Virus record (IMG/VR): IMGVR_UViG_3300044742_000097
Coordinates: 6,146-70,145 of that record
Source: a virus
Length of the DNA stretch: 64,000 nt
Reading direction: 5' to 3' (one strand)
A program made the position numbers and the translations under genes. Positions 5,068 through 54,839 of this stretch are shown here, piece by piece (position 1 is the first letter of the stretch; every line of letters starts with the position of its first letter). The notes beneath the pieces were generated by a model. It saw only the letters and a list, made by a program, of their open reading frames with translations, had not been told where the DNA came from and ran no database searches.

Positions 5068-6113
5068 CGCGTATAGACTCCGATGTTCGGGGTGAGCATG
5101 GTCGAGCTAGTGTCAGACTCCCCATCCCACATGTCACTCCAAGCCGAGGCCGCCTCGATTGGCAGGTTGGGGTCGGGCTTAGCCTCCTTGTCGACCAGCG
5201 AGAGATCGAACCCGAGGTTCAGGACGAGTGCCCGGTATGCGCTCTGTCGGAACTGAATCTCCTGCGCCATCGTCCCTACGTCCTGCACCTGGTACTGGAG
5301 ATACGCCACGAGGTTCCAGAACCGCGAGATCTCCCCCGGCCCGGGCCACATGGTCACGATCTGCTGTGTCCGCTGCTTATTGAGCCAATACGAAGTCGGC
5401 TGCCCGAGCGAGGTCTTGTCGGGTAGACTTGCGTAGTTGTCGAGATTCAACTCGGCCATGTTGGTCTCGCTTGGAGTATTCGCGAGCACCAGCTCCTCGA
5501 CGTTGAGGATCGTACCGCCTGTGGCCTGTAGGCGGTAGTAGGACCACTCCTCCATTCCCTCGACATCGAACCAGAACCACTCGCCGTCTACGACGACCTG
5601 GGCCGTGGCCGTGTAGAAGGTCGTGAAAGCGACCCCGTCATTCGATCCCTGCATCGTATAGCTCCAGGTCCCCGAAGCGCCTGGAAGTATCCCGAACATC
5701 GGAACTCGGGTCGCACCGTCGGTTAGCTGAAGCTGAATCCACCCATTAGCCAGGGTAATGCACTCGGTGGCAAAATCCCCGTCGAACGCATTGTCCGCTG
5801 TACCGGCCGACGACGACCCTGTTCCGGAGAGCCGGTTGATGCGGCGGAGATTGATCTCCATGATGTCCGTTACGCCGACGGGGAGTGGAACCGATTGCCG
5901 GGCTACGTAGAGGGGCAGGATTGTCTTCTGGATCAACCAGAGGGGAATACCTCTGTTCGCCATGGCTGAGAGACGAAGGAACAGCCAGTCATTGGCGACC
6001 TCGATCCGTTCCGGCGTTATCTCCTGCCGGACGATCTTGCAGACGCCGTAGGCGTTGTCTATGACCTTTCGGGTTGAGAACCGAGTAAGTCCGACTGTTC
6101 CAGACGTAGCCAT
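5064..6113 (-). CDS. head-tail adaptor-like protein with inserted discoidin-like domain
   Basis: MATSGT start, ANRG..LW motif, NAFDGD...YYRL insert; position after head genes. Confidence 0.55.
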   Translation of the reverse strand: MATSGTVGLTRFSTRKVIDNAYGVCKIVRQEITPERIEVANDWLFLRLSAMANRGIPLWLIQKTILPLYVARQSVPLPVGVTDIMEINLRRINRLSGTGSSSAGTADNAFDGDFATECITLANGWIQLQLTDGATRVPMFGILPGASGTWSYTMQGSNDGVAFTTFYTATAQVVVDGEWFWFDVEGMEEWSYYRLQATGGTILNVEELVLANTPSETNMAELNLDNYASLPDKTSLGQPTSYWLNKQRTQQIVTMWPGPGEISRFWNLVAYLQYQVQDVGTMAQEIQFRQSAYRALVLNLGFDLSLVDKEAKPDPNLPIEAASAWSDMWDGESDTSSTMLTPNIGVYTR

Positions 6114-11986: not shown

Positions 11987-12904
11987 CTAGAGACCCGGTG
12001 TCCCCCAGTTGTCGCGGGGATCGGTCCAGCCCGGAATGTACCGTTCCGTGCTCTTGTAGCGCATCGAGTCGGTCTCGAAGTCACCCTCCATCGCCTTCTG
12101 GAGTCCACGGCGCATCATGAGCTGAACACCGCGGCGGACATTCCCGTTCTGGATCCACCAGGCTGTGGTCGAGGTAACGCGGCTGAGAACCGCGACTCCC
12201 TGCGACAGCATTCCGGTAGTGTTGATCGGGTTGATGTCGTTGTTCGCCGCACCCGTTCGCAACACGCTCTTGATGATGACTTCCGCCTGGAACATGTTGC
12301 TCGGGGAAACGATGAACTTCACGGGGTTGAGCCGGACCTTCTTGCCGTTGGCATCGACGGCGCTTCGGATCTGGATCAACATCTGCTCGGCCGAGGTCTG
12401 GCTGAGCGCCGCCGCCGTCGTCAACAGGTTTGAATAGACGCCACTCACCAGAGGGTGGCTGAGGCTATTCATCGGTTGACCGTCGCCGCCGGGGAACGCT
12501 GCGTTGAACGCGCGGTTGAAAATCTGCGCGACCAGCGTCTCCTTCGTCTCGATCATGGACTGCGCGAGGTGCTCCGAGTAGATCTTGCCGATGGAGATGT
12601 GATCTCCGTCTTCGACCAAGATCCGCGTCAGAGCGAACGCCAAGCCGAAGACACGGTAGATGTACCGCTGTCTGAACAGCTCGCCGCCCTGTCCGTAAGT
12701 GACGGGGTCACCGTCCGGAACTTCGGGCGCGGCGTTGAAGCCGTACAGGACCGGCTCCTCGTGGTAGGCGCGCTTGATGCCGTCTCTCTGCTTGGCAACG
12801 TCCTTCCACTCGTCCTTGCGCTGATCGTAGATACCGTCGAACACTTCGTTGAGAATGGGCTCGACCACCGACCGGAAGTCGGTACTACGCATTGGATTGG
12901 CCAT
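11987..12904 (-). CDS. major capsid protein (HK97 fold)
   Basis: 305 aa; FNRAF..FPGGDG, DFETDSMRYK..ERY..GWTDPR..WGTPG motifs; follows scaffold and cement genes. Confidence 0.88.
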   Translation of the reverse strand: MANPMRSTDFRSVVEPILNEVFDGIYDQRKDEWKDVAKQRDGIKRAYHEEPVLYGFNAAPEVPDGDPVTYGQGGELFRQRYIYRVFGLAFALTRILVEDGDHISIGKIYSEHLAQSMIETKETLVAQIFNRAFNAAFPGGDGQPMNSLSHPLVSGVYSNLLTTAAALSQTSAEQMLIQIRSAVDANGKKVRLNPVKFIVSPSNMFQAEVIIKSVLRTGAANNDINPINTTGMLSQGVAVLSRVTSTTAWWIQNGNVRRGVQLMMRRGLQKAMEGDFETDSMRYKSTERYIPGWTDPRDNWGTPGL

Positions 12905-49939: not shown

Positions 49940-51325
49940 GTGCTCCGAACTGAGTTAAGGCCCTACCAGGGCGAAGCCGTTTCGCGTGCTTTAGAGTACG
50001 ACGGCTTCGCTCTCATTCCCGAGCAGCGTACCGGGAAGTGTTTGATCGCGTTCGCTGTAGCCGATGCTCGAAAGCCCGATGTCCTTTTCGTAGTTTGCCC
50101 GAAGAAGGCTATCAGGGTTTGGAGAGAGCAGCTAAAGGAACATATCAAGTTCGACTGGCCTTGCGAAAAGGTTCTAATCCACTACGAGGGGCTTTGCCGA
50201 TCCGCGAAGGATCGCAGGTGGTGGAGGAATCGGTTTCGCAAGACCTGGGCAGGTAAGAAGATCCTCACGATCGTAGACGAGGGGCACCGGATCAAGGGCC
50301 GAGGATCGCTCCAGTCTACCATGATCCGCTCGCTCGGTAAGATGTCCAAGTACCGTCTGCTCTTGACGGGGACGCCCGTCGACAAGGTCCGCGAGGACGC
50401 CTGGGCGATCATGGATTTCGTACAGCATGGAGCCCTGGAAGATACCTGGGAAGAATTCTCAGACCGCTATCTCAAGTACGACGTAGCTCAGAACAAGAAG
50501 AGCAAGAGGTTCTACAAGATCGTCACGGGATACCGGAACTCCAAGCGGTTCCGAAAGATCTTCCAACAATACAGCTACCGGGTAACGCTACGAGAAGCCC
50601 AGAGGAGTACCGGGCTGCGGCCCTACCTCGTTCGGAGGCGCGTTGTTCGGTTCGACCTTAAGCCCGAGTCGCGCCGGATCTACAACGAGCTAGAAACCGA
50701 TCTAAAGACCGAGGTGCGAAAGAAGAAAGTCAGTACCCCGTTGGTTGTTACCCTCGTCTCGAAGCTCCAACAGCTGACGGGCGGGTATCTGATCCATAAG
50801 GAACCAATATACGATGAAGACGATATCCCCGTCCTTACTCCCCGGGGGAAACCGAAAATAATCAAAAGCATCATTCCCATCGGACGGGAAAAGCTGATAG
50901 AGTTAGTCAAAGTCGTAAAGCGCTACCCGAAACGAAAGAAGCTTGTTATATGCGTCCAGTACACTCACGAGATCGAACGCATCGGCCGTCAGATAGAGAG
51001 GCTGGGCCGCTCATGGAAGAGGCTAGCGGGTGGAGAGTACTTCGACGGCAAGTTCGACGCCGATACGATACTGATGCAGATCCGGTCCGGAGAAGCAGTG
51101 GACTTGGCGGAGGCCGATACGTTCCTCATGTACAGTTGGGACTACTCCAACATCAGTCATGAGCAAGCGAAGTTCCGAATCCTAGAATTCACCACGAAGC
51201 GGGTTACTTACATCTACTTCATGGCGAACGAGAGCGTAGACGAACAGATCTACGAAGCAGTCCGAAAGAAGAAGAGCATAACAAGTCTGGTAATCGATAA
51301 ATACCGAAAGCGGAAGAAACGATGA
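49940..51325 (+). CDS. SF2 (SNF2-like) helicase
   Basis: LRPYQ, TGK, DEGH.IK, LTGTP, KLQQL.GG, QA..RI. Confidence 0.85.
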   Translation: MLRTELRPYQGEAVSRALEYDGFALIPEQRTGKCLIAFAVADARKPDVLFVVCPKKAIRVWREQLKEHIKFDWPCEKVLIHYEGLCRSAKDRRWWRNRFRKTWAGKKILTIVDEGHRIKGRGSLQSTMIRSLGKMSKYRLLLTGTPVDKVREDAWAIMDFVQHGALEDTWEEFSDRYLKYDVAQNKKSKRFYKIVTGYRNSKRFRKIFQQYSYRVTLREAQRSTGLRPYLVRRRVVRFDLKPESRRIYNELETDLKTEVRKKKVSTPLVVTLVSKLQQLTGGYLIHKEPIYDEDDIPVLTPRGKPKIIKSIIPIGREKLIELVKVVKRYPKRKKLVICVQYTHEIERIGRQIERLGRSWKRLAGGEYFDGKFDADTILMQIRSGEAVDLAEADTFLMYSWDYSNISHEQAKFRILEFTTKRVTYIYFMANESVDEQIYEAVRKKKSITSLVIDKYRKRKKR

Positions 51326-51759
51326 AGATGTCCAAAGTACTCGAAGCCATCCGGGAGGAACTGAAGAAGCCCCTCCCCGAGCCGAGAGTTGTTGTAACCA
51401 AGAAGGAGAGAAAGAAAGTGGCCAAGAAAGCAAAGAAGATCGAGGACGACGACGAGGACACCGGTCGCGACGATGACGACGAGGATGAAGGCGACGAGGA
51501 CGACGACGAGGACGACGCCCCCAAGTCCAAGAAGGGCAAGAAGGCGGCCAAGTCCGCAAAGGGCAAGTCTTCCAAGAAGTCGAAGTCGTCCGACGACGGC
51601 GTTTCCATCCAGGAGCTGGCCGAAGAGGCCGGAATCAACGCGCAGTCCGCTCGCGTGAAGCTCCGCGACGCCGAGTTGGGCAAGCCCGACGGCGGCCGCT
51701 GGCGCTGGAAGGAAGGGTCCAAGGACCTCAAGGCCGCACGCAAGGCGCTGGGTCTCTAG
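51322..51759 (+). CDS. acidic/basic HTH-like protein (paralogue family)
   Basis: VSIQELAEEAGINAQSARVKLR...RWRW. Confidence 0.65.
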   Translation: MKMSKVLEAIREELKKPLPEPRVVVTKKERKKVAKKAKKIEDDDEDTGRDDDDEDEGDEDDDEDDAPKSKKGKKAAKSAKGKSSKKSKSSDDGVSIQELAEEAGINAQSARVKLRDAELGKPDGGRWRWKEGSKDLKAARKALGL

Positions 51760-51767
51760 TCGATCAC

Positions 51768-51852
51768 GGACGCTGGAACAAGGTTCCGTGGTAGCGTACG
51801 GCCGGGAACGGAAACAGCTACCACCCGTCGGTGAGTACACTACGGGGCGTCC
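51768..51852 (+). ncRNA. candidate structured RNA, perfect four-way junction
   Basis: Four stems with no unpaired junction bases (see findings). Confidence 0.5.
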
Positions 51853-52078
51853 TTTCCAGGAGAGCAATGATGGCTCGTAAGAAAACAACTCGAAAGAATC
51901 ATGGCATTATCGCCATTCATCTCGATGGCTTCTGGAACCCTACCAAGGGTCACCCGGAGTATCGAGGCTCGCTGAAACTCGGAACGGACGAACTCGACGT
52001 GTCGCTCTGGGTCAAGCAGAGACACCCAGGCTCGCCGATTCCAATGCGAATGACGGGTGAGGTTACTCTCAAGCCGAG

Positions 52079-52546
52079 ATGAACCGCAGAGGATTTCTCA
52101 AGTCCCTTGGGGGTGCCGCTATCGCAGCGGCGCTTCCTTTGCCTGCTGTTTCGGAATCGACCTTTACTCCTACCTGGACTGAAGTCTCTCGCCGCATCTA
52201 CACCGATGAGCTGGGCGCGGCGATTGGCGCTCGGTACTCTGAGCTGCTGGCGCTATCGTTGAGACAGACGAAAGAGGAGCTCATAGCGCAGATCGCAACC
52301 CGTCTCTACACCGAACCACGTTTAGAAAAACTATGTCGGAAACTAATCTCTGGGATTGGCTGCGACCCTACCTCCCTCGTGGCCACTATACCAGAATCGA
52401 GACCGGAGACACCGGTCCGGGAACCCCTGACGTACACTACCGTATCCAGAGTGCTTCGGGGTGGCTCGAACTCAAAGATGCTCGACATCCCAACGCAGAC
52501 GTTCCCTTCCCCAACGAACGAGTCGGACTACATCGAAGCCAGATAA
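52079..52546 (+). CDS. twin-arginine-signal protein with major-capsid-like segment
   Basis: MNRRGFLK + hydrophobic stretch; IGARYSELLALSLRQTKEELIAQI; 3' part overlaps the next gene. Confidence 0.6.
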   Translation: MNRRGFLKSLGGAAIAAALPLPAVSESTFTPTWTEVSRRIYTDELGAAIGARYSELLALSLRQTKEELIAQIATRLYTEPRLEKLCRKLISGIGCDPTSLVATIPESRPETPVREPLTYTTVSRVLRGGSNSKMLDIPTQTFPSPTNESDYIEAR

Positions 52547-52761
52547 TCTGGATCCGAGAGCACGTCGAGTTCGGCGGGCTGGTGTATGTCGTCGCCCGGG
52601 TCGGCGCACGGATCTATTTCATCCCGGGCAAGTATGGGAACTCCTTCAACGGAGCACCCCTCCATCGCCTCAAGCACTTCTCTGTTCTAACCATCGACCA
52701 AACCGATCCGGGTTATGCTCTAAAGAAAATCAAACAAACCCTTGAAGGAGACAGACGCTAA
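52333..52761 (+). CDS. VRR-NUC/Holliday-junction-resolvase-like nuclease
   Basis: SE..L, RIE, GTPD, WLELK, Q..W. Confidence 0.75.
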   Translation: MSETNLWDWLRPYLPRGHYTRIETGDTGPGTPDVHYRIQSASGWLELKDARHPNADVPFPNERVGLHRSQIIWIREHVEFGGLVYVVARVGARIYFIPGKYGNSFNGAPLHRLKHFSVLTIDQTDPGYALKKIKQTLEGDRR

Positions 52762-54839
52762 TGGACATTCGAATCTGCACCTATCTCGATCCCCGTCAGA
52801 TCGCCCGATGCACCGAGTGTGGTGTAACCGCCGATCTCTGCCTGTGTCCACAGGTAAGTGAGCTCGCCCACCGCCGACTCTCGACCCCAGCCGGGAAATT
52901 CCTCCAGTCGGTCTTCGCACAGGCCGAAACCAGCCAGCCCAGCGACAACCTATTCGAGCGTTTGAATTGGGAGTTCGGTGATCTCGGAATGAAACTCGTC
53001 AGACACAATCGAACTCGCGATCCCTCTCCTGAGGAGATCTATGCCGCTATGGTGAAGATCGCCGCCGGTCTCACTCGCCTCGCGACCGAGGGAACGGACG
53101 AATACGCCTATCCATCAGGGTGAATTCTGTGTAAATTGATGTTCTCAAAGCGCGTATAATCGGAGATACGGCGCGGAATTCCCCGCGCTCGGTGAGGAGA
53201 CTAAAATGGGAAAGCCAAAGAGAGATGACCGCGACACGAAGGAGTTCACGCGGCGAGTCAAGAAGGTAGGGAAACACGTCGTAGAGCTTCGGAAGCTGAT
53301 CCAGACGGACAAGCAGGCTAAGGACCTGGATCGGATGACCGACGCGCTTACGTCGATTGAGAGGGATCAGAAGCCGCTACCCGCGTGAGCCATGGAGGCT
53401 CCAAGCGTCCGGTTCATTCCGACGGATCGGAGTACCGAGCACGGCTGGAACGGGAACAAACCAGCCCTCTGCTTCATGGGCGAACGGTGCGCCCACTGCG
53501 TAGTGTTCCTAGAAACCGAGGTTGGAACGATCGACCTACCCCTGGAGGTGGTAGCCGCCTGTCGACCGGTCTCTGACCCTTTCGGACCTGGCGTTCCGTA
53601 TGCGCCCGCGAAGTTTGTCGATCGCGTACTCAAGAGCGGGAAGCCTCTATCGCTGGAGGCCCGCTCGCTGTTGCAGTCGATGAACGGAAAGCGGAAGTCC
53701 TTGCCCCCGAACAGACCAAAGGTCGAGGTCAGGGTCTCTGCTACTGCCCCCCCGAAGGCTCCTCTGAAGACCGCCGGAGCCGAGCTAATCATCAAGTTAG
53801 CCACGGAGTGGAAGCTACCTAGCCCCAAGCTCCGTCGGTATCTCAGATCCCAGGGCCTACACGCTCCTTACACAGAGGAGAGGTCCCTGCGCGCGGTCCT
53901 CAAGAAACTGAAAAAAGGAAAGTCGAAATGAAAAGGAGAAGATCCAAACGGGTGGGCAGGTGCCGACTCTGCGGAGACTCGGGCGAGCTTACGCAAGGGC
54001 TCGACTCGAAGTGCTACAGCAGTACTCGACACTGGTCGGCTAACAAGACAGAACCAGAAAGAGATAAGTACCAAGCCAAGCTCCGTCTCCGTCTCGTACG
54101 GATGAAGGCGCTCGATGATGGTACCGTTACGTTCAACCACATCGGAGAGACTGCCAATGATAAAGTTCGTCGCACTTATCGAGGGGCCAGACCTAGAGCG
54201 AAAGCTAAGCCTGCTCCTCGACGCGGCCAAGGTCGCGGGGGTTCCCATGGAGCTGGGAGTAGTCGTCGCCGACCTGCCCTCTCGGCGGAAGTCCCAGCGA
54301 AAAGGACGATCAACTAAGGGAGCCAAGCGACCGAAGCGGCACCCAGGTAAGATGTCCGTGAAGCTCGGGACTCGCCCGGAGGGACCGCCTAGGCTGGTCG
54401 AGGTTCACCAGACTCTCTACAAGGAGTTCGGCACCGTACCCTTCGAGAAGCGACTGGCCAAGGGAGTCCTCATCAAGAAACTGAAGATGACGGGAGCCTC
54501 GGGCCAGGTCTCGGCCTTGATGAATCGGGGGGGTCTGGTCCCGGCGTAGGACCGATGGGGAGGAAGCGTTTGGGGGGCCTTCGGGCTCCCCTCTTTTTTC
54601 AGGAGATAGCGATGGGCAAGAAGAAATTCACGTCAGGTCAGAAGGCAGCTCGTAAAGAGAAGCGTGTTGCGGAGATGGTCGAGAGCTTTGTGGAGGACTT
54701 GGACTCAGATATCGATGCTCAGGTCCGAGAGCTATCGATCGAGGACTACGTGAGATGGTTATCCGAATTCACGGAGGCAGTCAATACCATGCTCCGGGGA
54801 CGGATCGAGGCGGCCAAGGAAGACGTGGAGAGGGGTTAA
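52761..54839 (+). other. small hypothetical genes ending the plus-strand block
   Basis: ORFs 52761-53123, 53206-53388, 53392-53931, 54115-54549 and one ending at 54839; TATAAT near 53155. Confidence 0.5.
54571..54599 (+). terminator. intrinsic terminator
   Basis: GGGGGCC-TTCG-GGCTCCC then a T run. Confidence 0.65.

Follow-up and report, generated by a model that had tools for sequence, protein, structure and literature searches.

A phage protein that joins a predicted Tat export signal to a segment resembling the phage's own major capsid protein

Two sequence modules at the locus

We analyzed a stretch of 64,000 nucleotides of viral DNA (the window), comprising bases 6146-70145 of the 70,145-bp IMG/VR virus record IMGVR_UViG_3300044742_000097, which CheckV rates as complete. 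The gene considered here is open reading frame 1 (ORF1), whose product begins with a signal of the twin-arginine translocation (Tat) type and continues with a segment homologous to the major capsid protein (MCP) encoded on the other strand. The features on which the comparison depends are listed below in window coordinates.

52079-52546, plus strand: ORF1 (P0001, 155 amino acids (aa)), an open frame with homologues; its functional part probably spans residues 1 to ~84
52079-52150, plus strand: Tat-type signal peptide, residues 1-24, with an NRRGFLK motif and then an Ala/Gly-rich hydrophobic stretch
52184-52312, plus strand: MCP-like segment, residues 36-78, a short strand-like stretch followed by the putative copy of the spine helix
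11987-12904, minus strand: MCP gene (P0002, 305 aa), matching PF25209 Phage_capsid_4 (E 2e-11) and PHROG head-protein families
12503-12631, minus strand: MCP residues 92-134, a strand and then a long helix, aligned to ORF1 by BLASTP and hhalign

The ORF1 protein starts at the ATG at 52079 and begins with MNRRGFLKSLGGAAIAAALP. Its N-terminus, M-N-R-R-G-F-L-K, agrees with the Tat consensus S/T-R-R-x-F-L-K, and a mildly hydrophobic h-region, SLGGAAIAAALPLPAV, is present. The TIGR01409 model scored ORF1 at 17.2 bits, above its cut-off of 16.7, and it was also above the cut-off for the relatives P0010, P0015, and P0017. The Pfam model PF10518 (TAT_signal) exceeded its cut-off in two relatives (25.2 and 23.1 bits), and candidate cleavage motifs (A-M-A, V-F-A, V-P-A or V-R-A) were seen in several. 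By sequence, ORF1 qualifies as a Tat-signal protein, as a preliminary description of the window had claimed. The nearest named ESM Atlas clusters of ORF1 are also Tat-signal proteins, at scores <0.9 that make them leads only. The idea that the Tat-like N-terminus is a copy of MCP strand 78-99 was rejected; it depended on a single weak BLAST segment, and the residue composition matches a signal peptide.

Residues 36-78 of ORF1 are homologous to MCP residues 92-134. The preliminary description had reported a 24-residue match between ORF1 49-72 (52223-52294) and MCP 105-128 (12521-12592, minus strand), and we recovered it at exactly these coordinates with 15 of 24 residues identical. The weaker similarity that had been seen just upstream falls inside a longer BLASTP alignment of ORF1 36-110 with MCP 92-173 (36.6 bits, E 9e-8). 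The Smith-Waterman score of the mature part of ORF1 (residues 25-84) against the MCP was 71, a value that none of 5000 shuffles reached (26.1 ± 4.1, maximum 50; Gumbel P ~5e-7). When the 380 open frames of at least 80 aa in the window were compared with ORF1, the MCP ranked first and the next score was 42. Comparison of alignment A2 with an MCP alignment by hhalign gave a probability of 96.8 (E 3.1e-10) and placed ORF1 42-78 on MCP 98-134. The similarity is thus significant by BLASTP, by hhalign, and by shuffling, a check that the preliminary description had proposed.

At the DNA level, 47 of the 72 bases of the 24-residue match are identical, with only 11 of 24 third codon positions in agreement; codon positions one and two are ~70-75% identical, both here and in the Tat-protein/MCP pair of a second phage, G002, described below. 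Because synonymous sites are saturated while the residues match, the ORF1 segment appears to be an old copy kept similar by selection at the protein level and not a recent duplication. Judged from these alignments, the MCP gene is the source or a paralogue of the segment copied in ORF1.

An AlphaFold2 model of the MCP placed a helix at residues 108-133, with low confidence (mean predicted local distance difference test (pLDDT) 41). From its position in the MCP and from this model, we infer that the shared helix is the spine helix of the HK97 fold. The alignments to the MCP cover only 37-75 ORF1 residues, and the full HK97 fold, with its N-arm, E-loop, P domain, and A domain, is not found in ORF1. 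A Pfam scan gave no capsid family for ORF1, and no PHROG family was found at E <=0.1. A complex prediction for the MCP (alignment A4) with ORF1 24-90 (alignment A2) scored 0.00, which we counted neither for nor against binding.

The MCP itself is 66.6% identical to the capsid-gene region of the Caulobacter phages RW, GB2A, KcrB, and RLK, and its family is abundant in metagenomes (6018 proteins at E <=1e-10). Its relatives at 60-75% identity (L144-L153) lie on contigs binned into metagenome-assembled genomes (MAGs) of very different phyla, among them Dehalococcoidia, Nitrospira, Coriobacteriia, Verrucomicrobia, and several Proteobacteria. The phage contigs were most likely mis-binned, and they are unusable for host assignment.

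Relatives and a second phage lineage

A phmmer search of 1.84 billion representatives with ORF1 returned six relatives beyond the query at E <=1e-3. Five of them align from the signal, and the sixth, P0005 (1067 aa), matches only residues 99-142 in the ORF1 tail. A profile of 14 members then matched 200 proteins at E <=1e-3 among 8000 scored candidates; the 120 of these that were listed all have E <=1.7e-15 and are 70-166 aa long. We examined 126 members, 118 of them newly listed and eight found earlier. An arginine pair with two hydrophobic residues directly after it lies within the first 25 aa in 125 of the 126, and the single member lacking the arginine pair looks N-terminally truncated. 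The strict helix motif is present in 116/126, with visible variants in the other 10. Homologues thus keep both the arginine-pair signal and the capsid segment, the two parts whose loss would have spoken against the earlier idea.

The near-universal arginine motif suggests that the protein engages the Tat machinery. Tat engagement normally puts the passenger outside the cytoplasm, and actual export of the ORF1 protein by this route is likely.

The homology can also be recovered in the opposite direction. A profile of nine small proteins, with no MCP included, matched the MCP helix in all 46 related viral records (per-genome E 1e-8 to 1e-10), these records being those of 80 loci with contigs of at least 20 kb. 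A local hidden Markov model of alignment A2 matched only MCP frames, at the helix and the C-terminus, in 10/10 MAG loci. Similarly, tblastn of P0015 against 50,697 GenBank phage records gave hits to MCP genes alone, in 10 records (E 1e-8 to 1e-3), and P0017 had no match among GenBank phages. ORF1 had no match in the GenBank phage collection at E <=10, alignment A3 had none in species-representative genomes, and P0009 had none in viral contigs. On these searches, no cultured phage in the GenBank collection appears to carry a family member, and ORF1 can be regarded as a genuine member of a large, uncharacterized accessory family of uncultivated tailed phages.

Judged from the alignments, the passenger always holds the strand and spine-helix region, and relatives add N-arm, E-loop, post-helix or C-terminal pieces. 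The N-arm piece (MCP 5-36) stands behind the helix in P0010 (E 3e-6), a C-terminal piece (MCP 275-301) is found in P0009 (E 2e-7), and the MCP C-terminus is weakly matched in P0008. P0095 has an E-loop piece together with the helix (E 1e-4). These extra pieces differ between members, and their order is sometimes not that of the MCP.

A subclass of 131 aa is collinear with MCP 79-176 over 92 columns (hhalign probability 97.8, E 1.3e-12). Its model is a small alpha/beta unit with a hairpin at 23-36, a helix at 54-91, and a hairpin at 107-122 (mean pLDDT 66.7), for which Foldseek gave no match in PDB or BFVD at E <=0.001. This class has invariant residues of its own that are absent from the MCP. 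A metal site built on its invariant His residues was considered and dropped, the window copy having no His. The Joint Genome Institute (JGI) name 'microcompartment protein CcmL/EutN' is attached to 8 of the 120 listed relatives, and the 131-aa members so named include P0015, P0022, P0027, P0030, P0032, P0038, and P0041. A Pfam scan (E <=0.01) of L124:8647-9045, which is the P0015 sequence, gave only TAT_signal, and the name looks like an annotation error.

Further weight for the proposal of a copied capsid segment comes from G002 (locus L004). Its MCP, P0014, belongs to a different family (phrog_9953, E 2.8e-74) and has no detectable similarity to the window MCP (best E 0.022, in unrelated regions). 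A Tat-signal protein of this phage, P0011, matches the N-terminal helix of its own MCP at residues 7-39, with 16/33 residues identical (E 1e-8). The Smith-Waterman score of the pair was 81, and none of 5000 shuffles reached it (26.6 ± 4.3). P0014 ranked first of 114 frames against P0011, the next score being 34, and third-codon-position identity in the pair is 10/33. P0011 did not match the window MCP, and ORF1 did not match P0014. The idea that such a protein copies the phage's own MCP, raised in the preliminary description for ORF1, is strengthened by this case in an unrelated MCP family. Own-capsid copying in an unrelated phage would point to selection for capsid resemblance as such.

P0251 (L008), again a Tat-signal phage protein and the third considered here, has weak similarity to another head-protein family (phrog_1357, E 5.8e-4; TIGR04387, E 0.019). 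As a further own-capsid case it is only suggestive, its MCP being absent from the partial contig. Paralogues of three other Tat-signal phage proteins were not found within their own incomplete records.

Reading frame, neighboring genes and distribution

The preliminary description had ended ORF1 at 52330. This end is wrong: there is no stop there, and the first in-frame stop lies at 52544-52546, so that the frame is open to 52546 and encodes 155 aa. The added part and the two adjacent genes are as follows.

52331-52546, plus strand: C-terminal tail of ORF1, residues 85-155 and the stop, overprinting the next gene in another frame
52333-52761, plus strand: downstream gene (P0003, 142 aa), phrog_2165 (E 3.7e-22), also in L003 and G004
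51831-52082, plus strand: upstream small ORF, 83 aa (GTG 51831) or 71 aa (ATG 51867), conserved with ORF1 in L003

The tail covers the first 214 nucleotides of the phrog_2165 gene. When the overlap was compared between the window and L003, identity by codon position in the frame of the neighbor was 62/72, 58/71, and 26/71. In the ORF1 frame only 22/72 aa of the tail are identical to L003, where the tail ends earlier, and a stop codon lies inside this frame in the close relative G004. On these comparisons the tail appears to be under no selection of its own and to follow from the fact that ORF1 lacks its own stop. Because the tail merely overprints the next gene, the meaningful product is probably residues 1 to ~84. 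A -1 frameshift at GAAAAAC that would fuse ORF1 to the next gene was also considered and rejected, as in this frame the heptamer is no canonical slippery site; the absence of an own stop accounts for the overlap, and a frameshift is not needed.

Within the unique part of ORF1, the other two same-strand frames contain 4 and 3 stops. Contigs of four DNA runs covering 51800-52800 showed five single-base differences at depths of 3-4, which are too few for a selection estimate. Around ORF1, Rfam, promoter, and terminator scans yielded no hit above the chance level.

The stop of the upstream small ORF overlaps the start of ORF1 as ATGA, both in the window and in L003 (L003:5744-6004). This upstream ORF had no Pfam or PHROG family, and together with ORF1 it may form a two-gene cassette. 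The gene order in L003, whose MCP is 88% identical to that of the window, is an SNF2-type helicase, an acidic protein, the small ORF with its ATGA, the Tat protein, and the phrog_2165 gene. The slot of G004 (MCP also 88% identical) that corresponds to window 51831-52330, L129:6384-6952, holds other genes: where the window has the 83-aa ORF and the Tat protein, this relative encodes a 62-aa membrane protein of two hydrophobic helices and a beta-rich protein of 123 aa. As far as sequence comparison goes, a hypervariable slot for accessory genes lies here, flanked by the acidic protein and the phrog_2165 gene. The acidic protein (145 aa, 51322-51759, plus strand) has a long Asp/Glu-rich center with Lys-rich flanks and is found in L003 and G004 too; its only PHROG match is a weak one to a single-strand DNA-binding protein family (E 3.4e-5).

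When only proteins whose match begins at the signal are counted as true homologues, 6 of the 46 related records have one. Homologues in L004 and L005 lie in other genomic contexts. The gene appears to be accessory and its context variable. In another clade, it stands among small genes 1-6 kb from the large terminase gene, and the order in L005 is terminase, a 162-aa ORF, the small protein, and portal. The preliminary description had placed ORF1 in the replication block and had taken this as a sign of expression before the capsid. The placement among replication genes is correct for the window; the argument for early expression is weakened, because relatives have the gene near the terminase or between terminase and portal, which makes the placement specific to the window lineage.

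A Tad2-like anti-Thoeris gene (PF11195, a sponge family) lies within ~1.2 kb of a family gene in three loci (G020, G022, and G008). The G020 copy, L124:8204-8425 (minus strand), matches PF11195 with E 1.3e-23; the genes at L128:6582-6809 (plus strand) and L123 ~5080-5284 (plus strand) were recognized by eye. In G008, a second Tat-signal protein of 88 aa with no capsid-like helix stands beside the family member (L128:4435-4701, plus strand), and a 200-aa protein with a Sec-type signal is encoded at L128:5355-5957 (plus strand), making a small cluster of exported proteins.

Proposed function and its alternatives

We propose that the phage protein consists of a host-type Tat export signal and a passenger descended from the phage's own MCP. 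The Tat system of the host would carry it to or through the inner membrane, leaving the passenger periplasmic or anchored with its C-terminus outside. In the capsid structures of P22 and 80alpha, the N-arm helix, the spine helix, and adjoining strands line the interior of the HK97 fold and contact scaffold or neighboring subunits. The passenger would mimic such elements (N-arm and spine helix), which are likely to face the capsid interior in this MCP as well, and the mimic would compete for a protein that normally docks on them. The partner that we favor is a virion-borne protein brought into the envelope by an incoming kin phage, and the outcome would be exclusion of superinfecting kin; this identity of the partner is doubtful. 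To the proposal of a Tat-exported mimic of interior-facing capsid elements that competes for a docking protein we give a probability of roughly 0.4. That the mimicry is a selected property seems somewhat better than an even bet, since the recurrent, non-collinear capture of capsid pieces, taken with the G002 case, suggests that resembling the capsid is itself under selection.

A number of points weigh against this proposal. The docking of an ejected virion protein on the MCP interior is a supposition, and a Tat system in the host is assumed. The PF10518 score of ORF1 (21.9 bits) is just below the cut-off of 22.7, and ORF1 has no clean AxA signal-peptidase site, only L-P-A before V-S. The window copy is among the shortest and most divergent members, its helix is without the NRAF end, and its coding signal is weak, with G+C at third codon positions (GC3) of only 0.58 in the unique part of ORF1 against 0.60-0.82 in its neighbors. 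The gene is dispensable: among the 15 related records of 90% completeness or more, one carries it. In a 7 x 7 identity table for the clade of the window MCP, the small proteins were no closer to their own MCP than to others. No own-capsid co-variation is to be seen within this clade, because the MCP helix is almost invariant there, and specificity for the own capsid rests mainly on the single G002 case. Finally, the modelled fold of the 131-aa class leaves room for its MCP-like residues to reflect the packing of a sub-domain, which could make mimicry unneeded.

The last point leads to the view that an old partial MCP duplication acquired an export signal and was exapted for a periplasmic role unrelated to the capsid, such as envelope modification or lysis control, with the likeness to the MCP kept only by the packing constraints of a small fold. 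The collinearity of the 131-aa class with the MCP, its predicted alpha/beta unit, its private invariant residues, and the other small exported proteins nearby, such as the pair in G008, are all consistent with this. It leaves unexplained the mosaic reuse of MCP pieces out of order and the independent match of P0011 to the N-terminal helix of a different MCP family, and minimal members such as the window copy keep the helix without the rest of the fold; we hold it to be a minor prospect, although one with real weight. An accident of another kind would be a spurious ORF or a functionless, decaying piece of a capsid gene left in a recombination hot spot. The weak GC3, the run of ORF1 into the next gene, and the hypervariable slot with its different genes in G004 would fit, but hundreds of homologues have conserved the start, the arginine motif, and the helix, residues have stayed similar while synonymous sites are saturated, and ORF1 with its ATGA start-stop coupling is conserved in L003. 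The stops in the other two frames also count against a remnant, whereas three differences in low-depth contigs of other samples (two synonymous, one not, and no indels or stops) are too few to weigh. We consider this explanation highly improbable.

Two further explanations keep the capsid likeness functional and move the site of action. CapRel and Lit are defenses triggered by capsid protein, and the preliminary description had suggested a decoy for such a sensor: the peptide would bind a defense protein in the cytoplasm, and the Tat signal would drag the complex to the membrane or out of the cytoplasm, leaving real MCP unable to set off the defense. Tat hitchhiking of partner proteins that lack a signal is established and would supply the means. 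A decoy tracking its model would fit the copies of the own MCP in two unrelated MCP lineages, and the gene is fast-evolving and accessory. Tad2-like anti-Thoeris genes near several members would fit too, since phage MCPs are reported to activate the Thoeris cyclases of staphylococci and streptococci (PMC12578639). On the other hand, that association was seen in only three loci and not in the window, a peptide resembling the trigger would be expected to activate the sensor unless binding is non-productive, and the strict conservation of the export signal (125/126) argues for action outside the cytoplasm; we judge the decoy unlikely. The same signal speaks against an assembly modulator or membrane tether, in which the copied helix or N-arm would enter MCP-MCP or MCP-scaffold interfaces while the Tat-like N-terminus holds it at the membrane or the Tat receptor, so that capsid assembly would come late, have its nucleation at the membrane, or be capped. 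Such a passenger would be put away from the cytoplasmic site of capsid assembly; moreover, 40 of the 46 related records lack the gene while their MCP is almost the same, so it is not needed for assembly, and the window gene lies among replication genes rather than head genes. The interior position of the copied elements in HK97-fold capsids, where scaffold and neighboring subunits are contacted, and the location of the gene inside the head module in L005 or 1-6 kb from the terminase elsewhere are what favor a role in assembly, which we regard as quite unlikely.

Known systems offer partial parallels to ORF1. The HK97-fold MCP (PF25209) shares partial homology with ORF1 and its relatives, but ORF1 is only a fragment, rearranged in places among the relatives and fused to an export signal, and neither the fold nor a shell would be possible. 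Bacterial Tat substrates, including uncleaved anchors such as Rieske Fe-S subunits, resemble ORF1 in the motif and the mildly hydrophobic stretch; ORF1 differs in being phage-encoded, in having a capsid fragment as its passenger instead of a cofactor-binding enzyme, and in that its export is only predicted. P4 Sid and SaPI (Staphylococcus aureus pathogenicity island) CpmB are small proteins that bind the MCP surface, alike by description; they are satellite-encoded and cytoplasmic and are not MCP copies. To our knowledge, T4 Imm and Sp are neither capsid-derived nor Tat-using, and they have no sequence similarity to ORF1. They are small, early, and envelope-located and block the DNA entry of kin; for ORF1 such a role is conjectural. 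According to one source, T4 systems for superinfection exclusion (Sie) block DNA entry mainly of close relatives (PMC13128918). The phage anti-defense protein DSAD1 is reported to bind the tail-tube sensor DSR2 without activating it (PMC11087589). The shared concept is a small accessory protein that competes with a virion protein for a sensor; the likeness to ORF1 is conceptual only, the two being set side by side by description.

Full-text literature searches turned up no account of a phage protein in which an export signal and a capsid fragment are combined. Taken at the level of sequence, the family appears to be a new kind of phage accessory protein, whose function we only infer. It is now known that several bacterial immune systems are set off by capsid proteins, and a copy of capsid elements with a predicted export signal bears on that subject. 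The family is large, it has two conserved modules (the export signal and the capsid fragment), and a counterpart copying a different capsid protein, that of its own phage, exists in at least one unrelated phage. Whether the bound partner is an immune sensor, a subunit of scaffold or capsid, or a virion protein that is ejected, this family would provide a compact entry to the use of host export by phages, and it opens a second question, that of how capsid interior surfaces are recognized. It also indicates that accessory genes can arise by reuse of structural-gene fragments. A broader claim would be that tailed phages repeatedly build small proteins from a Tat signal and a fragment of their own MCP, a form of capsid-peptide display that drags sensors out or intercepts kin virions in the envelope. 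This is possible, if on the unlikely side; if true, such display would be a previously unrecognized class of mimicry-based phage accessory factor.

Small proteins of the MNRRGFLK type with different passengers were also seen on other viral contigs (L006:6001-6225, L012:10001-10354, and L143:5016-5264), one of which is classed as a provirus. No family was found for the signal proteins of L006 and L012. The L143 copy overlaps its upstream gene by an ATGA and lies ahead of an ORF of 475 aa that resembles a UvrD-like helicase by eye.

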